Shown here one piece after another: positions 22,984 through 30,155 of a DNA stretch of 64,000 bases (position 1 is the stretch's first letter; each line of letters begins with the position of its first letter). The stretch lies in NCBI GenBank assembly GCA_963765765.1, contig CAVXYC010000001.1, positions 288,001 to 352,000 on the forward strand, given 5' to 3'. The DNA comes from an uncultured Chloroflexia bacterium (GTDB lineage Bacteria > Chloroflexota > UBA6077 > JACCZL01). Under the pieces are notes generated by a model. It ran no database searches. It was not told the DNA's origin and worked only from the letters and a program-made list of their open reading frames with translations. The translations under genes and the position numbers were made by a program.

Positions 22984-23381
22984 GTCCTACTAGCTAGGAA
23001 GGTGCCGTCCCGACCGGTTGCTACGTCGTCGCCCATAAACGATCGCCGTCTAAAATGAAGAAGCGACAAGAACCCGTTGATGGGAACCAAGCGAACTTCG
23101 CACCGGATGTCGGGCGGATTACCGCCAGCCGGTCTTCGCAGATCGCAGTCGAAGGCCCGTGCTTTACGTGTAGTCGCGCTTTACAAGCGCCACCCGATCG
23201 GGCGCACGACGACCCGGGCTGAGCTAACCTGCCGGTTCACTCTGCCTTGAAGGGGCGCGGTGCAGCGCCCATCGCGATTCGCGACGCGCAAACGTCAGGC
23301 GGCCGCGGTCCATGGCGAGGATGCAGCAGTCCCTGGATGATGTCGGAATGCGCGGTGGCTCCACCACCGCCGAGACGATGG

Positions 23382-23624
23382 TCAACGGTGCAATCCGTGC
23401 TCCATCGTCCACACCGCGATCTGTAAGCGGCTGAACAGTCCCAACGCCCGGAACATGTGCGCTATCTCGTTGGACACGGCTTCGGGCGTCAACGCGAGCC
23501 GCGCGGCAATCTCGCGGTTCGAGAGGCCCTCGGTCACGAGGGCGGCAATGTCTTCCTGGAGCGGACTAAGCACTCCTGGGCAATCGTCGCCGGAATTCGG
23601 GGGCGGATCAAGGTCGGTACGCAT
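23382..23624 (-). CDS. Stand-alone LuxR HTH protein (module 1)
   Basis: LSPLQEDIAALVTEGLSNREIAARLALTPEAVSNEIAHMFRALGLFSRLQIAVW. Confidence 0.85.
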   Translation of the reverse strand: MRTDLDPPPNSGDDCPGVLSPLQEDIAALVTEGLSNREIAARLALTPEAVSNEIAHMFRALGLFSRLQIAVWTMEHGLHR

Positions 23625-23795
23625 CGAGCCACTCCTCAGCACTGGCCGGCTGGTCTCGTCATCGGAGAACCAGCACGCACTCTCTGCGCGATGCTCCCGG
23701 TGGCAGGGCTCAGGCCCAGCAAAAACTGCCGTTCCCCAGGATAGCAGCCAGTGGGAGGAATTACCAAGGGTCTCGCTAGGAATTACCGAGCTCGG

Positions 23796-24071
23796 TCAGC
23801 CGGCAGCGTCGCGCTCGTCCCGATCCTGTCGGAGAAGCTGCCGGGCTTCCGTTCCAACGGTCCGCAGCCGCTGCTCACTGGACGGATGCGTCGGGTGCGT
23901 GCGATCCCACTCGCGGATGTCCTCGATGTCGGCGAGGACGATCCGCGCCACAAGCTCCGCTTCCATCACTGTTCCGCCGTCGAGCGTCACCGGCGGCAGC
24001 CCGTAAAAGGCGCCGCGCTGCAATCTAGCATCCAGCTCCGCGGCGAGGGCGTCTAATTCGGGCCAATCCAT
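23796..24071 (-). CDS. Protein X family member (copy B)
   Basis: MDWPELDALAAELDARLQRGAFYGLPPVTLDGGTVMEAELVARIVLADIEDIREWD; RBS ggggag. Confidence 0.82.
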   Translation of the reverse strand: MDWPELDALAAELDARLQRGAFYGLPPVTLDGGTVMEAELVARIVLADIEDIREWDRTHPTHPSSEQRLRTVGTEARQLLRQDRDERDAAG

Positions 24072-24093
24072 CGCCAACTCCCCATTGAGTGCG

Positions 24094-24190
24094 CTACGTT
24101 TTGCGATGTGATCCGTCGGGCCGCGGTGAACGGATCACACCAGCATCGATGGTGTTCCGGCCCCAGCTCCAGTCTGCGAATCGTTAGCAC
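24094..24190 (-). promoter_or_regulatory. Conserved leader element, diverged copy (module 1)
   Basis: Minus strand GTGCTAACGATTCGCAGACTG...GGGCCG...CGGCCC GACGGATCAC ATCGCAAAACGTAG, homologous to 25113-25200 and 29377-29471. Confidence 0.55.
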
Positions 24191-24570
24191 CATCTCGCGA
24201 TTTAAGAGGCGCGGTGGAGGATAGTCCAGTAAGCCCGCAGGTGCGACACGTGTAATACATAACGGGTGAGTACACAGTCTGGTTGGCACAGTCTCCCTGC
24301 GTAGTGCAACGCGCAGGGCGGTTCGGATCTTCGTCGATGTCGAGCAGGTCAGTTATAGGTCGTACGGGACTTAAATGCGACGTCGCCTGCGGTGGTCACA
24401 GATCCAGCGCCCTGTATGAATGGTGCGCCCGGGGCCGAGTCGGGGGAGTCACGGCGCAACGTGTCGTCTCGGGCCCCGGGCACCACGTTAGCGGTGTAGG
24501 GGCGGACTGACTCACGGTCAGTGCGGTATCGAACACAGCGCGTCCGTCCGCTTCGACCAGGGGTCAGTGA

Positions 24571-24768
24571 TTACGATGGGTGGTCGATCGCCCACAGGGC
24601 AATCTGTACGCGGGTGATAAGTCCCAACGCCCGGAACAGGCCCACTATTTGGTCGGACACGGCTTCGGGCGTTAACGCGAGCCGCGCGGCAATCTCACGG
24701 TTCGAGAGGCCCTCGGCCACGAGCGCGGCAACGTCCGCCTGGAAAGTGTAAGCATTCATCGACACCAT
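24571..24768 (-). CDS. Stand-alone LuxR HTH protein (module 2)
   Basis: QADVAALVAEGLSNREIAARLALTPEAVSDQIVGLFRALGLITRVQIALWA. Confidence 0.82.
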   Translation of the reverse strand: MVSMNAYTFQADVAALVAEGLSNREIAARLALTPEAVSDQIVGLFRALGLITRVQIALWAIDHPS

Positions 24769-24780
24769 CAGACGGCAGGT

Positions 24781-25074
24781 TCAATAGATGTAGGCAGATT
24801 GTGTTGCGGCAGCGTGGCGCTCGTTCCGGCCAAGTCGCAGAAGCTGCCGAGCATGCGTTCCAACAGCTTGCAGCCATCTCTCACCGGTCGGATGCGGCCG
24901 GTTCTTACGATCCCACTCGCGGATGTGCTCAATATCGGCGAGGACGATTCGCGCCATGAGCTCCGCTTCTATAACATGTCCGCCCTCGAGCGTCACAGGC
25001 AGCCCCCGCAAGCCTCCGCGCTGTAATCGGGCTTGCAGCTTCATCGCGAGCGCGTCTAATTCCGGGCAATTCAT
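24781..25074 (-). CDS. Protein X family member (copy C)
   Basis: MNCPELDALAMKLQARLQRGGLRGLPVTLEGGHVIEAELMARIVLADIEHIREWD. Confidence 0.82.
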   Translation of the reverse strand: MNCPELDALAMKLQARLQRGGLRGLPVTLEGGHVIEAELMARIVLADIEHIREWDRKNRPHPTGERWLQAVGTHARQLLRLGRNERHAAATQSAYIY

Positions 25075-25112
25075 TGCCAACTCCACGTGGGTGCGTCGGC
25101 CTGGTTTGACTC

Positions 25113-25200
25113 CTACGTTGCGGTGTGCTCCGTCTGCAGGCCGCGATCAAATGTATCCAATGCTCTTCGACCTGCAGCGACAGTCTGCGAGTCGGAGCAC
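25113..25200 (-). ncRNA. Candidate structured 5' leader (module 2)
   Basis: Outer stem GUGCUCCG/CGGAGCAC, bulge ACUCGCAGACUG, inner stem CUGCAGGUCG/CGGCCUGCAG, tail ACCGCAACGUAG. Confidence 0.5.
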
Positions 25201-25764
25201 CACTGGAATACAAATCGCAGGTTACCAAGCGAGCCGGCCGCGCGGAACATGCAGTTGTGCACTAATTCGGGCGCCCAAAGACACAAGAGACCGCCAGCAC
25301 GATGAAACCCGGCTCTCTCAGTGCTGGCGGTCTACCGTCCGAGCGCATTCTAACGGTGCACGTTCCAGAAATCGGTTAACGGCTTGACAGTCTAGATGGG
25401 GCCACATCACCGTAGCAGTGTGCCGTTGTATACATAGGGGGCTGCCGAGCCATTGCTATGCTGAGATGCCCGTGTGAGCCTCGCGGAGTCCGGGCATGCA
25501 TGGTTCCGATTCAGGTCCCATGCACTCTCCATGAGCGAACTCCGGGAGGCTCAACCAGAGAACACCGTCGCGGGGCTCGTCGGCACCACGTTGGCGGAGT
25601 GGATGTCGACTCCTACCTGAGCCGATTCCGCGAATGATCACGGCTCGGGACAGCTCTGTGCTCCTCGACGTGGTCACAAATCGCCTGCGCACGCCGAGGC
25701 ATCGGAGCGCTGCCTACGCCACTGTTCAGAAGTAGGGGGAGAGCCAGGCGATGTTCGATGTTCT

Positions 25765-25888
25765 TCGTAGCACGGGGGCTTGTCCTGTCCTGAGTTGCCC
25801 CGGCATCCGACGACGGATCCAGCCTGATTCTCCCCGTGGCCGGCGCCTATGGCGCTCCAGGCACAAGGGACAAGCCCCCGTGCTACGA
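25765..25888. repeat. REP doublet (GTAG type)
   Basis: Perfect 21-bp inverted repeat tcgtagcacgggggcttgtcc (25765-25785) / 25868-25888. Confidence 0.8.
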
Positions 25889-26078
25889 CAGTCGTCCGGC
25901 GGATCGTCCCCGCAACTCTGAACACGTCCATCTGGTCGAGAAGCTTCCAACAAACGTCCGACTTCCCTCTAACTGATCTCTGATGCGAGCGTCGGTATGC
26001 TCTGGTCGAGGCCGTTTCGGATCCTCCCAGCGATCCGAAAGGCTGTCGAATCCATTCTTTGCAGAGGAGGGATTGACC

Positions 26079-26294
26079 ATGCCCCAATCATGGTCACCGA
26101 CAGTCGGCGACGAAGTACGCGTGAAATCATTTGGAGAACGTGGGCCTATCGTGCGCATCGAAGGCTCCGGTGATTCGGCCGTGTACGCGGTGAACAGCCG
26201 CAGGTATCGCTTTGTTGACGCCGACGGTCAGATCAAGAACACCGCCCTGGAGCCGAGGGAGTGCTCCATCGCCGATCTCGAGCCAATCAGCTAG
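26079..26294 (+). CDS. Small SH3/KOW-like beta-barrel hypothetical protein
   Basis: RBS gaggagg; PTVGDEVRV..GPIVRIEG..YAV..DLEP pattern; own terminator follows. Confidence 0.7.
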   Translation: MPQSWSPTVGDEVRVKSFGERGPIVRIEGSGDSAVYAVNSRRYRFVDADGQIKNTALEPRECSIADLEPIS

Positions 26295-26301
26295 ATAAAG
26301 A

Positions 26302-26333
26302 CAGATAAGCCCCGTATTCCCGGGGCTTATCTG
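26302..26333 (+). terminator. 13-bp perfect hairpin
   Basis: cagataagccccg-tattcc-cggggcttatctg. Confidence 0.7.
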
Positions 26334-26398
26334 GTTCCACGGTGCCCCTGCTGCAGCGCAGGGACACGGTGTCGATCGCACCGCTAACCAAACTGCTC

Positions 26399-26620
26399 AT
26401 GTCACGAAGACGGACACGTGCTGCCGGTCCTGGACGGGCACAATCAACCACGGATATGGGTCTGGTATGAAGCACATCTTCGCGCATGTCACAGCCTGGT
26501 AAGAGAAGCACGGCCCGTCCCGCCCGGACATCGGCTGACAACGACGTGTCGCCCCCGCCACTGCATCAACCCTGATGACTGGGCCGCCGTGCGCAGAGGT
26601 GACTTCTTCCGATCAATGAA
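26399..26620 (+). pseudogene. HNH endonuclease remnant (phage HNH_3-like)
   Basis: CCRSWTGTINHGYG..AHVTAW*EKHGP/VPPGHRLTTTCRPRHCINPDDW; in-frame stop plus frameshift. Confidence 0.7.
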
Positions 26621-26806
26621 GCGCCCTGTTCATCGGTGTTGGTGTGATCGTTCGAGTCCATACGCATCTCTCGGGAGCATGGGACTAGACAGAGCTCGGC
26701 GACACGGGCCCAACGCATGGGTCAAGGCCTGATCGATGCGGCGGCTCCGCGCGGTATGGTCTCTGCAGGACAGCGGCATTCCTCATACACGACGCGAGGT
26801 GGTGCC

Positions 26807-27077
26807 ATGGAATGGTTGGAGGTGGACAGAGTCGCGGACCAGCTGCATCGCTTGCTCCATCGGGGAGCGTTTCGGGGACTCCCCGGAGGTGGCCGTGGAT
26901 GCGGTTCATATGATGGATGCGGAGCTGGTGGTTCGGATCACGCTGGCGGATATGGCGCACATCCGCGACTGGGATGTCGCGCATCCGCTTACGCCAATGC
27001 CCGATTCTCGCCGACGGGACTTGGCCGAGGCCGGCTATCGACTCCTGGGACTGGTGGAAGCGGTTCGGTCGCTCTGA
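26807..27077 (+). CDS. Protein X family member (copy D), one frameshift near 26885
   Basis: MEWLEVDRVADQLHRLLHRGAFRGLP/EVAVDAVHMMDAELVVRITLADMAHIRDWD. Confidence 0.78.
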
Positions 27078-27221
27078 CTGGTCCGGCCATCTGGTATCCT
27101 TCTGCACGGGCATGTTTCGCCGGCCCGCTCGTCGGGCTTGGCTTCGGGGCAACACCAGCCTCGGCAACACTTCTTTCGTCCTTGCTGACGAGACCTGCCC
27201 AGTACGCGGCAGGTAAGTGCC

Positions 27222-28022
27222 ATGCTCGGCAATTTCGACTTTCTCTCCTATTCGGACGACCGGTTGCTGGACGCGCTCGAGCGTCTGGTCGTTCTCCCAG
27301 GGTTGGAGCTGCGTCCCACGCTTGACGAGGCGTCGACGGTGGTGGCCGAGGCGGTGGACGCCGACAAGGTTGACGTCTTTTTGTACAAGGCGAATAAAGA
27401 CAGCCTGGTGGCGCTGGGCACCAGCGACACACCCATGGGACGCAAACAGCTCGCGCTCGGGCTGGACCGCTTCCCGCGCGCCAACGCCGGACCACTCTGG
27501 CGGGTGTTCGAGACGGGCGAGACGTATCGCACCGGCCACGCCGAGCAGGACCCGACCCAGCCCCGTGGGCTGATCGAGGCGCTCGGGGTGTGCAGCCAGG
27601 TGCATGTGGCCGTGGATGTGCGGGGCGAGCGGCGCGGTGTCCTGGGGGTCGTGAGCCAGCGCGAGGAGCACTTCAGCGAACGCGATCAGCGCTTTCTCAC
27701 TGCCGTGGCCGGCTGGATCGGGCTGCTCATGCACCGAGCCGAGGTGGTGGAGCAGCGCGACCGGGAGATCGACCGGCAGGCGCGGCGGGAGGCCGGCGAC
27801 GAGCTGGCCCGAATCACCCGCCGACAGCAGGAAGTCGCTGCGCTGGTGGCGGAGGGTCTGAGTAACGAGGAGATCGGCGTACGGCTCACGCTGGAGGCCG
27901 GCACGGTGGCCAATCACATGGAAAACATCCTGAAGCGGCTCGAGCTGCGGAATCGGACCAGCCTGGCGGTCTGGGCGGTGGAGCGCGGACTGTATCGGTC
28001 CGATTGGGGCGAGAACGGATGA
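27222..28022 (+). CDS. GAF plus LuxR-HTH transcriptional regulator
   Basis: ADKVDVFLY..SLVALGTSDTPMGR..FSERDQRFL; ITRRQQEVAALVAEGLSNEEIG..TVANH. Confidence 0.9.
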   Translation: MLGNFDFLSYSDDRLLDALERLVVLPGLELRPTLDEASTVVAEAVDADKVDVFLYKANKDSLVALGTSDTPMGRKQLALGLDRFPRANAGPLWRVFETGETYRTGHAEQDPTQPRGLIEALGVCSQVHVAVDVRGERRGVLGVVSQREEHFSERDQRFLTAVAGWIGLLMHRAEVVEQRDREIDRQARREAGDELARITRRQQEVAALVAEGLSNEEIGVRLTLEAGTVANHMENILKRLELRNRTSLAVWAVERGLYRSDWGENG

Positions 28023-28109
28023 GCGCGCCCGACGACGGAAGGGCAATTGGACGACTGGATCGTGAACGGCGCGATTGGCGCTTCGACCTCACGGCGGAAG
28101 GGGTAATAG

Positions 28110-28625
28110 TTACCGAGACCGATGACATCGCACCGGATTCCTGTCGCTCGGTCCTTGGTCAAACCGACTCCCACCGAGCCGCGCCCGGCAATCCGTTGCC
28201 CAGCCCGCTGCCTGTGCTGAAACCGTCCGAAGGCGCTCGGCGTCGAGCACGGCCTGATGTTCCGCCTCGAGTCGAAGCTGGGCATCGCGCTGACTCTGCG
28301 CGAGACGGAGCTCCAAGTGCTCCTGGAACTGCACACCGTAGGCGATCATGACTTCGAGCAGGAATTGCTGACCGCATCCCTCGAGGTGGGCACGCTCGCG
28401 GGCCGATTGGCCGGCGAGCGCCCGATCGAAGCTCTCGAAGTGGAGCGCGATGATGTCCTCGGGCCCGAGTCCTCCGCGGATCAGGTGCTGACTCAGCTGC
28501 GAGACCCGGTAGAGCGCATCCTCGCTGCGCGTGGCGATGTAGCCGCGCAGGAGGTCTTCGTACGCGTCGGGGCCGAACTCCGGCTCATCAGTAGCGAGCT
28601 GTGCGGCCTGGGAATCAAAAACCAT
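28110..28625 (-). CDS. RsbU N-terminal domain protein with no catalytic domain (stand-alone or truncated)
   Basis: YEDLLRGYI..SEDALY..LGPEDIIALH..FLLEVMIAYG resembles the B. subtilis RsbU N-terminus; coiled coil, then non-homologous tail. Confidence 0.8.
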   Translation of the reverse strand: MVFDSQAAQLATDEPEFGPDAYEDLLRGYIATRSEDALYRVSQLSQHLIRGGLGPEDIIALHFESFDRALAGQSARERAHLEGCGQQFLLEVMIAYGVQFQEHLELRLAQSQRDAQLRLEAEHQAVLDAERLRTVSAQAAGWATDCRARLGGSRFDQGPSDRNPVRCHRSR

Positions 28626-28806
28626 GGGAGGCTTGTTCAGTCGGACGGATGGACGGCGACGGCGCCAGGCGCGTGTCCAAGGCGGGACCGACGGATGCGC
28701 CATTGTCGCGGGCTCAGCTTTCGGCCGGGCAGATTCCTCGTGCGGAGCAGGCGCCGCACGGTCAGTCCGCTACCGAACACGGCGCGTCCGTCCGCTTCGA
28801 GCACGG

Positions 28807-28998
28807 TCAGCGGTGCGATCCATGCTCGATCGCCCACGGAGCAATCTGTAAGCGGGAGGTCACTCCCAGCGCCCGGAACAGGCTCGCTATCTCGTTGGAC
28901 ACGGCTTCGGGCGTTAACCCGAGTCGCTCGACAATCTCGCGGTTCGAGAAGCCCTCCGCCACGAGTGCGGCAACGTCCTTCTGGAGGGGTGTAACCAT
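28807..28998 (-). CDS. Stand-alone LuxR HTH protein (module 3)
   Basis: TPLQKDVAALVAEGFSNREIVERLGLTPEAVSNEIASLFRALGVTSRLQIAPWAIEHG. Confidence 0.82.
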   Translation of the reverse strand: MVTPLQKDVAALVAEGFSNREIVERLGLTPEAVSNEIASLFRALGVTSRLQIAPWAIEHGSHR

Positions 28999-29010
28999 TC
29001 ATCGACACTA

Positions 29011-29322
29011 TCAGACAGCAGGTTCAATGGATATCGGGTGAGATTGGGCCCTGGCACCGTCACACTCGTCCCGGTCCATTTGCAGGAGCTGCTGGGCATC
29101 CGTTTCGACAGCTCGCAGTCGTCTCTTCCCGGAGAGATGCGTCGGGCGCGTCGGGTACCACTCGCAGAGATCCTCGATGTCGGCGAGGACAAGCCGCGCC
29201 ACGAGCTCCGCTTCCATGACCTTCCCGCCGTCGAGCGTCACAGGCGACAGCCCGCGAAACGCTCCGCGCTGCAATCTGGCCTGCAGCTCCACAGCGAGCG
29301 CGTCCAATTCGGGGCAATCCAT
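29011..29322 (-). CDS. Protein X family member (copy E)
   Basis: MDCPELDALAVELQARLQRGAFRGLSPVTLDGGKVMEAELVARLVLADIEDLCEW; RBS ggaggt. Confidence 0.82.
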   Translation of the reverse strand: MDCPELDALAVELQARLQRGAFRGLSPVTLDGGKVMEAELVARLVLADIEDLCEWYPTRPTHLSGKRRLRAVETDAQQLLQMDRDECDGARAQSHPISIEPAV

Positions 29323-29376
29323 CGCCACCTCCACATGGGTGCGTCGGGCCCACAATCATGCCGCCTGCTTTCGATC

Positions 29377-29471
29377 CTACGTTGCGGTGTGCTCCGTGGT
29401 GGGTCGGCAGACCACGATTGAACGTATCCGATCGTCTTCGGCCCACCACGCCAGTCCGCGAGTCGGAGCAC
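29377..29471 (-). ncRNA. Candidate structured 5' leader (module 3)
   Basis: Outer stem GUGCUCCG/CGGAGCAC, bulge ACUCGCGGACUG, inner stem GUGGUGGG/CCCACCAC, tail ACCGCAACGUAG. Confidence 0.5.
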
Positions 29472-29543
29472 CACTGCCCAAGATATCAAGCGACCGGGGC
29501 GCGCGAACCCATAGATATGCACAAATTGGGGTACGGAAAGCGA

Positions 29544-29656
29544 CTTACGCAGTGTGGAAGGATTTCGGACAATCAGGTTACGAGGGACCTGATACGGCGT
29601 TCGAGGACGGCCATTTCATATCAGGGCACCCGACCGGGCAGCGAAATTGGTCTTGG
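29544..29656 (+). repeat. Diverged direct repeat of a regulatory-like element (copy 1; copy 2 at 31017-31130)
   Basis: gtggaaggatttcggacaatcaggttacga and agcgaaattggtcttgg, starts 86 nt apart. Confidence 0.75.
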
Positions 29657-30155
29657 TCAAGGCGGACCCGACTCCGTGCCTGGGCGGGGCGCTGGTGAGC
29701 AGGTAGAGCACTGCCGCGCCAAACGGCCGCCGCGTGCTCAGGATTAGCCGAAGGGAAAGCCGGAAAGGCGAAGTGAGGCACGCCCGCCCCGGCTTTCCCG
29801 AGCGCCGCTGGGGGGTGGGTCCACCTCCCACGGTACTTAGAGATTACCGAATGGGGACCGCCCCGGTGGGATTTATCGGGTCTCGGGTCCGTCACGACGC
29901 CCATACCGTGGACGCCTCGCAGACTTGGTTGCTCGAATCGCTTCTGGCGAACGGAAGCGGTCGCCTTGGACGCCGGTCCTGCCGCCGCCTGCGTCGGCAG
30001 TCAAGCGGCCCCGAGCACCACGGCGTGGATGCCGATGCCAGGGGCCGTCTAAGTTCGGCTGCGGAGCTCGGGGTTGACGTGGGCGGGCCGCCTGGTGACT
30101 GCCCGCTGCGTGATCGGAATCTCCGCCGCGGCACGTGGGAAATACGCGGGTAGGG

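Follow-up and report, generated by a model that had tools for sequence, protein, structure and literature searches.

The window, the whole 64-kb stretch of DNA that was analysed, carries on its minus strand three neighbouring gene pairs, each coding for a small protein X and a tiny LuxR-type DNA-binding protein (H). Upstream of each of the three X–H pairs lies a related leader of about 95 bases that can form a long hairpin. The conserved ATG starts of the X genes are located at 24071, 25074 and 29322 (copies 1, 2 and 3), and the features of the locus are as follows.

23382–23642, minus strand: H1, LuxR/GerE-type helix-turn-helix (HTH) protein (PF00196, E 9.2e-09), probable ATG at 23624
23796–24071, minus strand: X1, protein X gene
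24093–24197, minus strand: leader copy 1 (subtype E), degenerate outer helix (CM R1 77.1 bits)
24571–24768, minus strand: H2, 65-aa LuxR/GerE-type HTH protein adjoining the 3' side of X2 (PF00196, E 6e-06)
24781–25074, minus strand: X2, protein X gene (97 aa; three helices and a small beta hairpin)
25113–25207, minus strand: leader copy 2 (subtype A; nhmmer E 1.8e-21, CM R1 97.4 bits)
25193–25200 and 25125–25132, minus strand: outer arms of copy 2
25171–25177 and 25134–25140, minus strand: inner helix of copy 2, CTGCAGG/CCTGCAG
25113–25124, minus strand: tail of copy 2
25208–25270, minus strand: probable promoter region of copy 2, with conserved GTGCA(T/C)A..., GGTTCGCG and the TGnTAnnnT-like TTGGTAACCT
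25274–25333, minus strand: 13-bp hairpin resembling a terminator, with CUUGUGUCUUUGG after it, immediately 5' of the promoter region of copy 2
28807–28998, minus strand: H3, 63-aa LuxR/GerE-type HTH protein (PF00196, E 8.3e-09)
29011–29322, minus strand: X3, protein X gene
29377–29476, minus strand: leader copy 3 (subtype B; CM R1 88.8 bits)
29464–29471 and 29389–29396, minus strand: outer arms of copy 3
29442–29449, minus strand: inner 5' arm of copy 3
29477–29535, minus strand: probable promoter of copy 3, with GTGCATATCTATGGGTTCGCG ... TTGATATCTT and its end 7 nt short of the 5' arm region

X2 had no match in Pfam or NCBIfam. In one soil lineage the X–LuxR module has multiplied to about 21 copies; between the operons of copies 2 and 3 the X proteins are 63% and the four-fold sites 71% identical.

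The 8-nt complementary arms are identical in leader copies 2 and 3, which also share the ACUCGCRGACUG block and the ACCGCAACGUAG tail. Two 20-mers occur exactly twice each in the window, GTGCTCCGACTCGCRGACTG at 25181–25200 and 29452–29471 and CGGAGCACACCGCAACGTAG at 25113–25132 and 29377–29396 (0.04 and 0.01 occurrences expected from shuffles), which bears out an earlier note on this DNA that had described the outer helix of both copies as identical. Its account of copy 1 was also correct: ATTCGCAGACTG and GGGCCG/CGGCCC are retained next to a degenerate outer helix, an architecture shared by metagenome locus L027. The elements end 22, 38 and 54 nt before the ATG in copies 1, 2 and 3, inside the 20–55 nt proposed. 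In the minimum-energy folds of copies 2 and 3, arm complementarity continues past a 2-nt bulge as GUGGU/ACCGC, with a similar extension in L033. Conservation is highest in the two mutually complementary arms; a 26-nt internal block is likewise conserved in sequence. Inspection of the sequence found no local dyad symmetry within either arm. Centre-to-centre spacing of the arms in seven full-length leaders is 65, 66, 67, 68, 75, 78 and 80 nt, with no helical phasing; this fits a hairpin, since phasing matters for two sites on duplex DNA and not for a hairpin.

There is no conserved promoter-like spacing inside or downstream of the element, where the insertion in copy 3 would shift any −35, and copy 1 leaves just 22 nt before the ATG; the promoter is therefore probably located upstream and the element transcribed with X. 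A strict sigma-70 scan returned nothing at the promoter regions of copies 2 and 3, where the −10 candidates chosen would place the transcription start 0–12 nt before the stem. The terminator-like hairpin at 25274–25333, the 3' half of which is common to L024 and the 20-nt loop of which exceeds the limit of the terminator scan, suggests that the X2 transcript begins downstream of it. Terminator scans of 23300–25500 and 28700–29900 gave no terminator-like sites beside the elements, and the 3' arm is followed by ACCGCAACGUAGGA, not by the U tract that directly follows the hairpin in an intrinsic terminator or attenuator.

The element was found upstream of the closest X paralogs only, three in this genome and 8 of 10 soil-metagenome loci, so that the close X clade has it in 11 of its 14 leaders; the earlier view of a conserved cis element in X leaders was thereby upheld. 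Leaders of close paralogs on contig C20 and at L029 are devoid of it, that of the contig C10 paralog has a remnant only, and a search of GTDB species genomes did not find it: the element is confined to one lineage. Mean pairwise identity is 0.36–0.55 in the 100 nt upstream, rises to 0.73–0.90 exactly at CAGTGGTG..., amounts to 0.44–0.50 in the hairpin interior and to 0.78–0.81 over GGATACGTTCGATCGCGGCCTGCCGA and the 3' arm, and stays at 0.80–0.87 onward to the ATG. Such a jump at the 5' arm is the pattern expected if conservation starts at the transcription start. The element as a whole changes at about the same rate as the four-fold degenerate sites of X (mean identity 0.69 vs 0.67). Similarities of element and protein do not agree, and this points to recombination or gene conversion; the protein of L026, for instance, is closest to that of copy 3 (0.75) and its element to that of L033 (0.89).

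The claim that the inner helix changes its sequence and still pairs was right in part. Both helices exist, CTGCAGG/CCTGCAG in copy 2 and GTGGTGGG/CCCACCAC (29442–29449/29396–29403) in copy 3, but their 3' sides are non-homologous: the CCCACCAC arm is formed by CCCACCA, 7 nt inserted behind the conserved CTGCCGA and present also, minus one C, in metagenome locus L031. The homologous columns of copy 3 still pair, as UGGUGGG/UCUGCCG with three G-C and four G.U pairs, and include one true double change, U-A to G-C. The inner 5' arm of copy 3 can take as its partner either the inserted CCCACCAC or, via wobbles, the homologous UCUGCCG (29405–29411). Because the final C of CCCACCAC is the first C of CGGAGCAC, inner and outer helices of copy 3 cannot both form at full length. 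A strong helix, engaging the 3' arm or continuing the outer stem, is found in every subtype: CUGCAGG/CCUGCAG in subtype A, GUGGUGGG with the inserted CCCACCAC in B, UCGGCG/YGCCGA, stacking on the outer helix, in C, and GGUGUGAUCCGU/ACGGAUCACAUC in E, where A-to-C and G-to-U changes convert two A.G mismatches to pairs. The minimum-energy fold of copy 1 contains a different 12-bp hairpin (24105–24141), which captures the 3' arm and with which GGGCCG (24158–24163) and CGGCCC (24118–24123) would form a pseudoknot. In subtype C (L033, L026 and L025) the ACUCGCRGACUG block is cut to ACUC-G, with about 8 nt (GCRGACUG) gone.

The description of the stem-loop as covarying did not survive a small alignment of 11 leaders from five subtypes, which bears signs of recombination between leaders and genes. 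None of the eight outer-helix pairs showed compensatory changes, four departed by mismatches only, and two of seven inner pairs had changed on both sides. The covariation score of 0.188, compared with 0.149 ± 0.022 in shuffles, was reached by 21 of 500 shuffles, and six of the nine leaders having both arms contained at least one uncompensated mismatch. Standard pairs fill 85.5% of the outer-helix cells vs 30–46% with the partner slid by 1–3 columns. RNAalifold found no consensus fold for the 11 leaders (−1.14 kcal/mol); the structure conservation index was 0.06 for subtypes A–D, 0.27 for A–C and 0.70–0.79 within subtypes. The wider comparison reveals more sequence conservation than true covariation, and a regulatory RNA is for this reason a plausible candidate. 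The Rfam check proposed earlier was also run and no known family matches the elements: Rfam 15 gave no matches in the entire window at gathering thresholds, and the four matches at E ≤ 10 in 23500–30000 lie outside the elements, all 42–72 bits below threshold.

With the closing stem formed, copy 2 has a minimum free energy of −36.1 and copy 3 of −39.9 kcal/mol; this stem also forms in L024, L033, L026 and L025. In the minimum-energy folds of nine full leaders the element pairs internally and the Shine–Dalgarno sequence (SD) is located in a separate proximal domain. A stable hairpin precedes the ribosome-binding site, as in 5'-terminal stabiliser stem-loops. On the X-sense strand hairpin stability exceeds chance only marginally (z −2.34 in copy 2, −1.42 in copy 3 and −1.65 in copy 1). 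Mean z over the 11 leaders is −0.83 sense and −1.2 antisense; the sense value is below −2 in one leader and near zero in six. The antisense (plus) strand folds better in copy 2 (z −3.15, 0 of 200 shuffles folding as well), copy 3 (−3.49, 0/200) and L031 (−2.56, 1/200), the remaining eight leaders ranging from −1.67 to +0.56. Pairing is kept solely on the X-sense strand by U.G pairs of L024 in both helices, by a G.U closing pair in L033, L026, L025 and L030 and by three wobble/Watson–Crick switches between copy 1 and L027, and several substitutions give A.C mismatches on the plus strand. The sense-strand G.U excess is largely compositional, since slid registers have it too; as the earlier note had held, wobbles do not fix the strand.

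Binding of the element by X had also been proposed, and we found no evidence in its favour; structure prediction places X on the LuxR-type protein instead, in contact with its recognition and dimerisation helices. Median ipSAE for this pair was 0.65, and 0.01 for the best of three controls; among 157 solved complexes 116 attained the ipSAE mark, among 215 mismatched pairs 2, counts that apply only roughly here, where own alignments were used. Runs share at least 94% of contacts, with a partner pLDDT of at least 67. X is thus predicted to be an anti-LuxR-like partner, not an RNA binder. Foldseek returned nothing for the X structure at E ≤ 0.001, and the best VIA-align matches were generic helical bundles (Z 8.7 or less), with no known anti-activator among the matches listed. 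As a small helical protein predicted to sit on LuxR-type DNA-binding helices, X would resemble the antagonists in TraM–TraR, QslA–LasR and phage Aqs1–LasR; Aqs1, according to PMC13043044, binds the DNA-binding domain of LasR and blocks DNA binding. Unlike TraM, QslA and Aqs1, X belongs to no sequence family and its fold has no informative match; its partner, unlike TraR and LasR, is a stand-alone HTH of 63–86 aa without ligand-binding domain, and the X–HTH pair differs from theirs in being co-transcribed, X first.

We tentatively read the element as part of a lineage-specific, selectively conserved and structured 5'-UTR of a bicistronic X–LuxR-HTH mRNA that acts at the RNA level, an explanation we prefer while rating it at somewhat less than an even chance. 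Conservation of sequence, complementarity of the arms, confinement to X leaders and lack of a known family are established by the analysis; transcription start, strand, in vivo fold and effect on expression are inferred. The transcript would start 0–12 nt before block CAGUGGUGCUCCG, and this block would pair with CGGAGCAC(AC)ACCGC 65–80 nt downstream, closing in vivo an irregular hairpin of ~90 nt with an interior apparently rebuilt differently in each subtype. Such a 5'-proximal domain would determine how stable the X–HTH message is and/or how well it is translated, and may also be a feedback target of the operon's own products. Improbable in our estimation is the more specific case of a new protein-responsive riboregulator, in which the hairpin and its GGAUACGUUCGAUCG loop block are bound by free HTH or the X–HTH complex. 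If true, the X/HTH ratio would feed back on stability or translation of its own mRNA, and a LuxR-solo/anti-LuxR module would thereby regulate itself at the RNA level.

Regulator pairs of this kind usually control themselves at their own promoter or leader, and this counts in favour of control at the DNA level, which we nevertheless regard as rather unlikely. Operators for the operon's own HTH would then lie in the 5' arm region (roughly +1 to +25), in the GGATACGTTCGATCG block and in the 3' arm, the arms serving as oppositely oriented sites and X modulating binding by sequestration of the HTH. The operon does encode a DNA-binding protein, the recognition helix of which X is predicted to cover; neither strand can be assigned, X promoters repeatedly contain GTGCAT-type dyads, and the arm changes, never compensated, fit a constraint on sequence rather than on pairing. 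Moreover, ACGTTCG and CGTTCGA from the best-conserved block were found five times each in the sense orientation (expected 0.65 and 0.92) in 19 other X-paralog upstream regions, one occurrence forming a perfect CGTTCG-GA-CGAACG dyad in front of the C20:474458 paralog. LuxR/GerE dimers, however, normally use dyads of about 16–20 bp, whereas the arms are 65–80 bp apart, unphased and neither of them locally dyad-symmetric, and so are not lux-box-like. The long intramolecular helices recreated in each subtype and the complementarity beyond the 8-mers would also be left unexplained.

The same helices would be by-products of G+C-rich sequence and template-switch or quasi-palindrome mutation if the hairpin had no specific function, and the leaders simply reflected the common descent of X cassettes that were duplicated recently and recombine, together with ordinary promoter- or SD-proximal 5'-UTR constraints. 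We find this doubtful, although the element is about as diverged as four-fold sites, was lost from leaders of close paralogs, conflicts with protein similarity in L026 and has sense z near zero in 6 of 11 leaders; the 7-nt insertion, perfectly complementary to a nearby 8-mer, may itself be a template-switch product. Against it stand the patterned identity (low upstream, high in the arms, low in the middle), arms identical in copies 2 and 3 despite the divergence of their X genes, and four independent helix solutions, all on the same 3' region. An antisense RNA over the X leader, transcribed from the plus strand and folded into the more stable hairpin, would account for the plus-strand z of copies 2, 3 and L031, but not for the values of the other eight leaders or the A.C mismatches, and no plus-strand gene, promoter-like or terminator-like site flanks the element; we consider it very improbable.

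Among known leader types, the riboswitch suggested by the earlier note is an unlikely match. The leader position and, in copies 2 and 3, conserved unpaired nucleotides between helices are riboswitch features, but subtype C has lost most of the bulge, an expression platform is missing (no terminator, and an SD free of the element), the genes concerned are regulators rather than metabolic genes or transporters, and the element is restricted to one lineage. With ribosomal-protein leaders and other cis-regulatory RNAs of Rfam the element shares a conserved irregular 5'-UTR hairpin, conserved unpaired blocks and an operon product that could bind it; such autoregulatory protein-binding families typically have covariation support, which together with an Rfam match is lacking here. 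The leader also resembles the 5'-terminal stem-loop mRNA stabilisers of the E. coli ompA / papA 5'-UTR type, reportedly the subject of Emory et al. 1992, Bouvet & Belasco 1992 and Bricker & Belasco 1999: the hairpin would be at or near the mRNA 5' end, the SD downstream is accessible, and no ligand or terminator is needed. For those stabilisers 5'-terminal pairing suffices and conserved sequence is not needed, whereas here sequence is conserved in both arms and throughout the 26-nt internal block, and the −10 candidates chosen may leave about 12 nucleotides unpaired at the 5' end of copy 2.

Three paralogous two-gene cassettes are encoded on the minus strand of the window. Each joins a small unknown protein (X1–X3, 91-103 aa counted from a conserved ATG) to a small LuxR/GerE protein encoded downstream (H1–H3, 63-86 aa, barely more than the helix-turn-helix (HTH) itself, with PF00196 E values of 9e-09 to 6e-06). 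The features are as follows:

23382-23642, minus strand, H1 (PF00196)
23796-24071, minus strand, X1
24093-24197, minus strand, copy 1 of the leader element (degenerate)
24571-24768, minus strand, H2 (PF00196)
24781-25074, minus strand, X2
25113-25207, minus strand, copy 2 of the leader element
26807-27077, plus strand, fourth X-like gene, 5' of a GAF–LuxR gene (27222-28022, plus strand)
28807-28998, minus strand, H3 (PF00196)
29011-29322, minus strand, X3
29377-29476, minus strand, copy 3 of the leader element

The outer arms (GTGCTCCG/CGGAGCAC), both inner helices, the tail and the degenerate state of copy 1 agree with their description in the earlier note, as do the tail-to-ATG gaps of 22, 38 and 54 nt (20-55 nt had been given). 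Within the window, the flanking 20-mers are confined to copies 2 and 3; each occurs twice, where 0.04 and 0.01 occurrences would be expected. In folds of copies 2 and 3 the complementarity of the arms runs past the 8-mers, as GUGGU/ACCGC across a 2-nt bulge; arm spacing is variable (65-80 nt), with no helical phasing.

The element is a real, lineage-restricted and conserved leader that is able to form a hairpin and that falls in none of the known families. The window holds no Rfam 15 match at gathering thresholds, and the four sub-threshold matches between 23500 and 30000 are all irrelevant. In the genome of origin (6.49 Mb), blastn, nhmmer and R1, a covariance model (CM) of the element, recovered only the three copies plus one weak remnant (contig C10:61807-61886; nhmmer E 1.3, CM E 0.92), properly placed 5' of a close X paralog. 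The two-arm gapped pattern GCTCCGACTCN{45,75}GGAGCACACYGCAA had no match in 185,579 species genomes. Two of 101 genomes searched as relatives matched R1, namely the genome of origin and one further genome with a single hit (G025, E 0.008); this hit falls within a 322-aa ORF and was taken as chance. Contigs of four soil DNA runs, searched at 80% likeness, gave patchy cover and no within-element variant among the matches listed.

Protein X has 21 matches in its own genome. Among 41 genomes of relatives it was matched in two, the genome of origin and the unpublished G006 (two weak hits, which support none of the conclusions drawn here); across the phylum it was matched in one of 401 genomes at E<=1e-5, the genome of origin, and in none of the other 400. 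A scan of species-genome contigs with the X alignment yielded no relatives among 30 pattern matches. The protein database contains 33 X homologues, 30 of them of metagenome origin, and ten JGI metagenome loci were recovered. Eight of these (L024-L027 and L030-L033) carry the element; L029 is without it in 155 nt of leader, and the upstream sequence of L028 is too short to judge. Altogether, the close X clade, including the contig C10 and C20 paralogs, has the element in 11 of 14 leaders, a remnant in one and none in two. By these searches, its occurrence is restricted to a single uncultured soil lineage, where the element marks only part of the X family.

The 11 element-bearing leaders form subtypes A (copy 2, L024), B (copy 3, L031), C (L033, L026, L025), D (L030, L032) and E (copy 1, L027). 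RNAalifold of all 11 elements gave -1.14 kcal/mol and no helix fitting the structure proposed earlier; the structure conservation index was 0.70-0.79 within subtypes, 0.27 for A-C and 0.06 for A-D. In the proposed structure, 85.5% of outer-helix cells are paired; none of its eight pairs changed on both sides, and four vary through mismatches only. For the inner helix the paired share is 72.7% of cells, and two of seven pairs are compensated. A covariation score of 0.188 was obtained, a value reached by 21 of 500 shuffles. Folding z on the X-sense strand was -2.34, -1.65, -1.42, -1.20, -0.84, +0.22, -0.03, -0.44, +0.49, -1.65 and -0.27 over the 11 leaders (mean -0.83), and on the opposite strand -3.15, -1.67, -3.49, -2.56, -0.92, +0.10, -1.54, -0.33, +0.56, -0.82 and +0.14 (mean -1.24). 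The earlier description of the stem-loop as covarying is overstated: significant covariation was not reached in the larger alignment, where 11 sequences give little power.

The inner helix had been said to change sequence and still pair. Both helices do exist, but they are not homologous on the 3' side. In copy 3, the inner 3' arm (CCCACCA) arises from an insertion of 7 nt after the conserved ...GGYCTGCCGA, not from substitution at the helix positions of copy 2, and one C of copy 3 is common to its inner and outer 3' arms. The homologous columns of copy 3 pair as UGGUGGG/UCUGCCG (three G-C and four G.U), with one true double change, U-A to G-C, relative to copy 2.

Conservation along the 11 leaders is distinctly blockwise. 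Sliding-window identity is 0.36-0.55 upstream, rises abruptly to 0.73-0.90 at CAGTGGTGCTCCGACTCGCRGACT, is 0.44-0.50 in the element interior and 0.78-0.81 over GGATACGTTCGATCGCGGCCTGCCGA and the 3' arm, and reaches 0.80-0.87 between AAACCAGGC and the ATG; four-fold sites of X, for comparison, have a mean identity of 0.67. Every subtype builds its own strong helix on a common 3' region. In subtype E, two A.G mismatches become pairs through an A-to-C change within the GGAUACG block together with a G-to-U change in the 3' arm, yielding a 12-bp hairpin in place of the outer helix. We read this pattern as helix turnover in a transcribed leader. A constraint on RNA (or on a single strand) accounts for it better than a pair of duplex-DNA sites would, and it is also compatible with quasi-palindrome mutation without selection. 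If the hairpin is functional, it would illustrate a mode of turnover in which structure is kept via insertion and re-pairing, not by classical compensatory substitution, and which covariation tests miss.

Within the leader, conservation is widest over the 30-40 nt before the ATG (25075-25112 and 29323-29376; CGACGCACCCAYGUGGAGKUGGCGAUG). This Shine-Dalgarno (SD)-proximal stretch is also found in L029 and in the contig C10 paralog, and can fold a small hairpin, GCCGAC/GUUGGC, partly over the SD, whose closing pair shows a G-C to A-U double change in L030 and L032.

The element most probably forms the 5' part of the X mRNA, as we infer from four features of the sequence. Copy 1 ends 22 nt from its ATG; any internal -35 would be displaced by the copy 3 insertion; a 13-bp hairpin (AGACCGCCAGCAC/GTGCTGGCGGTCT, 20-nt loop) followed by a U-rich tail, CUUGUGUCUUUGG, lies directly 5' of the copy 2 promoter region (25274-25333, minus strand), with its 3' half conserved in L024; and TAnnnT-type -10 candidates occur 7-20 nt upstream of the 5' arm. 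The terminator scan missed this hairpin, whose 20-nt loop is above the limit of the scan, and a strict sigma-70 scan returned nothing. Transcripts would start 0-12 nt upstream of CAGUGGUG. A search for RNA runs that include this locus found none. A possible internal promoter of copy 2, TGCAGA-17-TAGGAG, was rejected: neither copy 3, with its insertion, nor the tail of L033 conserves it. A GTG-initiated upstream ORF, alike in copies 2 and 3, was ruled out, its frame being broken by indels of 1 nt (L024), 7 nt (copy 3) and ~8 nt (subtype C). Sequestration of the SD by CUCC of the 5' arm was not favoured in folds of nine full leaders. Cassette 2 is separated from the promoter region of copy 1 by an inverted repeat rich in G+C (GGTGCGCCCGGGGCCGAG ... 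CTCGGGCCCCGGGCACC, loop of ~26 nt; 24428-24487, either strand), which has no U tract after it and may be a terminator or insulator.

We tentatively favour, at somewhat less than an even chance, a structured domain in the 5'-UTR of the X–H mRNA that would act on stability or translation, possibly under feedback. 5'-terminal stabiliser stem-loops offer an analogy. If functional, the element would belong to the cis-acting 5'-UTR structures, and a hairpin working in this way would be an undescribed cis-regulatory RNA. The conserved blocks might instead be operators for H, an account we regard as unlikely; in its favour, leaders of distant X paralogs are enriched in two 7-mers of the best-conserved block, ACGTTCG and CGTTCGA (five hits each against 0.65 and 0.92 expected), one occurrence there being a perfect dyad. 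Just as unlikely in our estimate is a relic of duplication and gene conversion, to which the disagreement between the similarities of element and of protein points, as does loss of the element in close paralogs.

The earlier note held that wobble positions do not fix the strand, and this stands: the sense strand has 24 G.U against 4 A.C cells, and slid registers are equally biased, so that the G.U excess cannot serve as a strand test. We give a plus-strand antisense RNA very little credence. The element had also been called riboswitch-like; a metabolite riboswitch is very unlikely, since the bulge is deleted in subtype C, an expression platform is missing and the regulated genes are themselves regulators.

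Protein X matches no Pfam or NCBIfam family. AlphaFold predicts a fold of three helices and a beta hairpin (pLDDT 75.5, pTM 0.60), for which Foldseek found nothing at E<=0.001, VIA-align gave Z of 8.7 or less, to generic bundles, and the ESM Atlas contained no usable match. Twelve of 22 X loci lie <=1.5 kb from one of the 52 GerE matches of the genome (by our own estimate ~2-3% per locus is expected by chance), and in seven of these twelve the GerE domain is directly downstream on the same strand. The modelled X2–H2 complex has a median ipSAE of 0.65, the best of three controls reaching 0.01; 116 of 157 solved complexes attain the ipSAE mark, against 2 of 215 mismatched pairs, and these counts apply only roughly, since our own alignments were used. 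The model runs have at least 94% of contacts in common, with partner pLDDT at least 67. The predicted interface involves H2 residues 34-46 and 51-61, which we take, from GerE topology, to be the recognition and dimerisation helices.

The model supports binding of H2 by X2, and X may represent a new anti-LuxR partner family. Such binding would resemble that of LuxR-type anti-activators, the closest analogue being phage Aqs1, which is reported to act on the LasR DNA-binding domain (PMC13043044). Binding of the hairpin by X, which had been suggested, therefore ranks as less likely than titration of H by X. If the hairpin is functional, the RNA would be tied to an undescribed module, with about 21 X paralogs in one genome, in which, by prediction, a family-less protein covers the helices that stand-alone LuxR-type proteins use to bind DNA. 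A non-exhaustive search of the structured-RNA discovery and LuxR anti-activator literature found no LuxR-associated leader motif described. Of the new findings, the pairing of X with a LuxR-type HTH protein is arguably easier to test than the hairpin.

Several minor observations concern the paralogs and gene surroundings. Leaders of distant X paralogs (e.g. C15:655668, C20:697158 and C20:474458) have conserved motifs of their own, namely a perfect GTGCAT-CTTT-ATGCAC dyad, a CGTTCG-GA-CGAACG dyad and repeated ACGTTCG/CGTTCGA at -42 to -96, which are candidate operators for LuxR-type partners. The fourth X-like gene has its N-terminal X-like part (MEWLEVDRVADQL...) and its C-terminal part in different frames, switching near a CCCC run at ~26880; its paralog at contig C14:320032-320367 is 89% identical and retains the same long ORF. 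A frameshift common to both genes, a pseudogene or recoding might account for the split. In L026 and L029 the HTH gene 3' of X appears broken across two frames, which could reflect frameshifts, pseudogenes or assembly errors. Some 50-100 nt just 3' of the stop codons of H2 (24480-24570, minus strand) and H3 (28700-28806, minus strand) are alike in cassettes 2 and 3, e.g. TCGAAGCGGACGGACGCGCYGTGTTCG...ACTGACCGTG, and would be either a conserved 3'-UTR or an unannotated short frame. The gene 3' of cassette 3 (28110-28703, minus strand) encodes an RsbU N-terminal domain (PF08673, E 1.2e-15), and many signalling and partner-switching type regulators surround this cassette.
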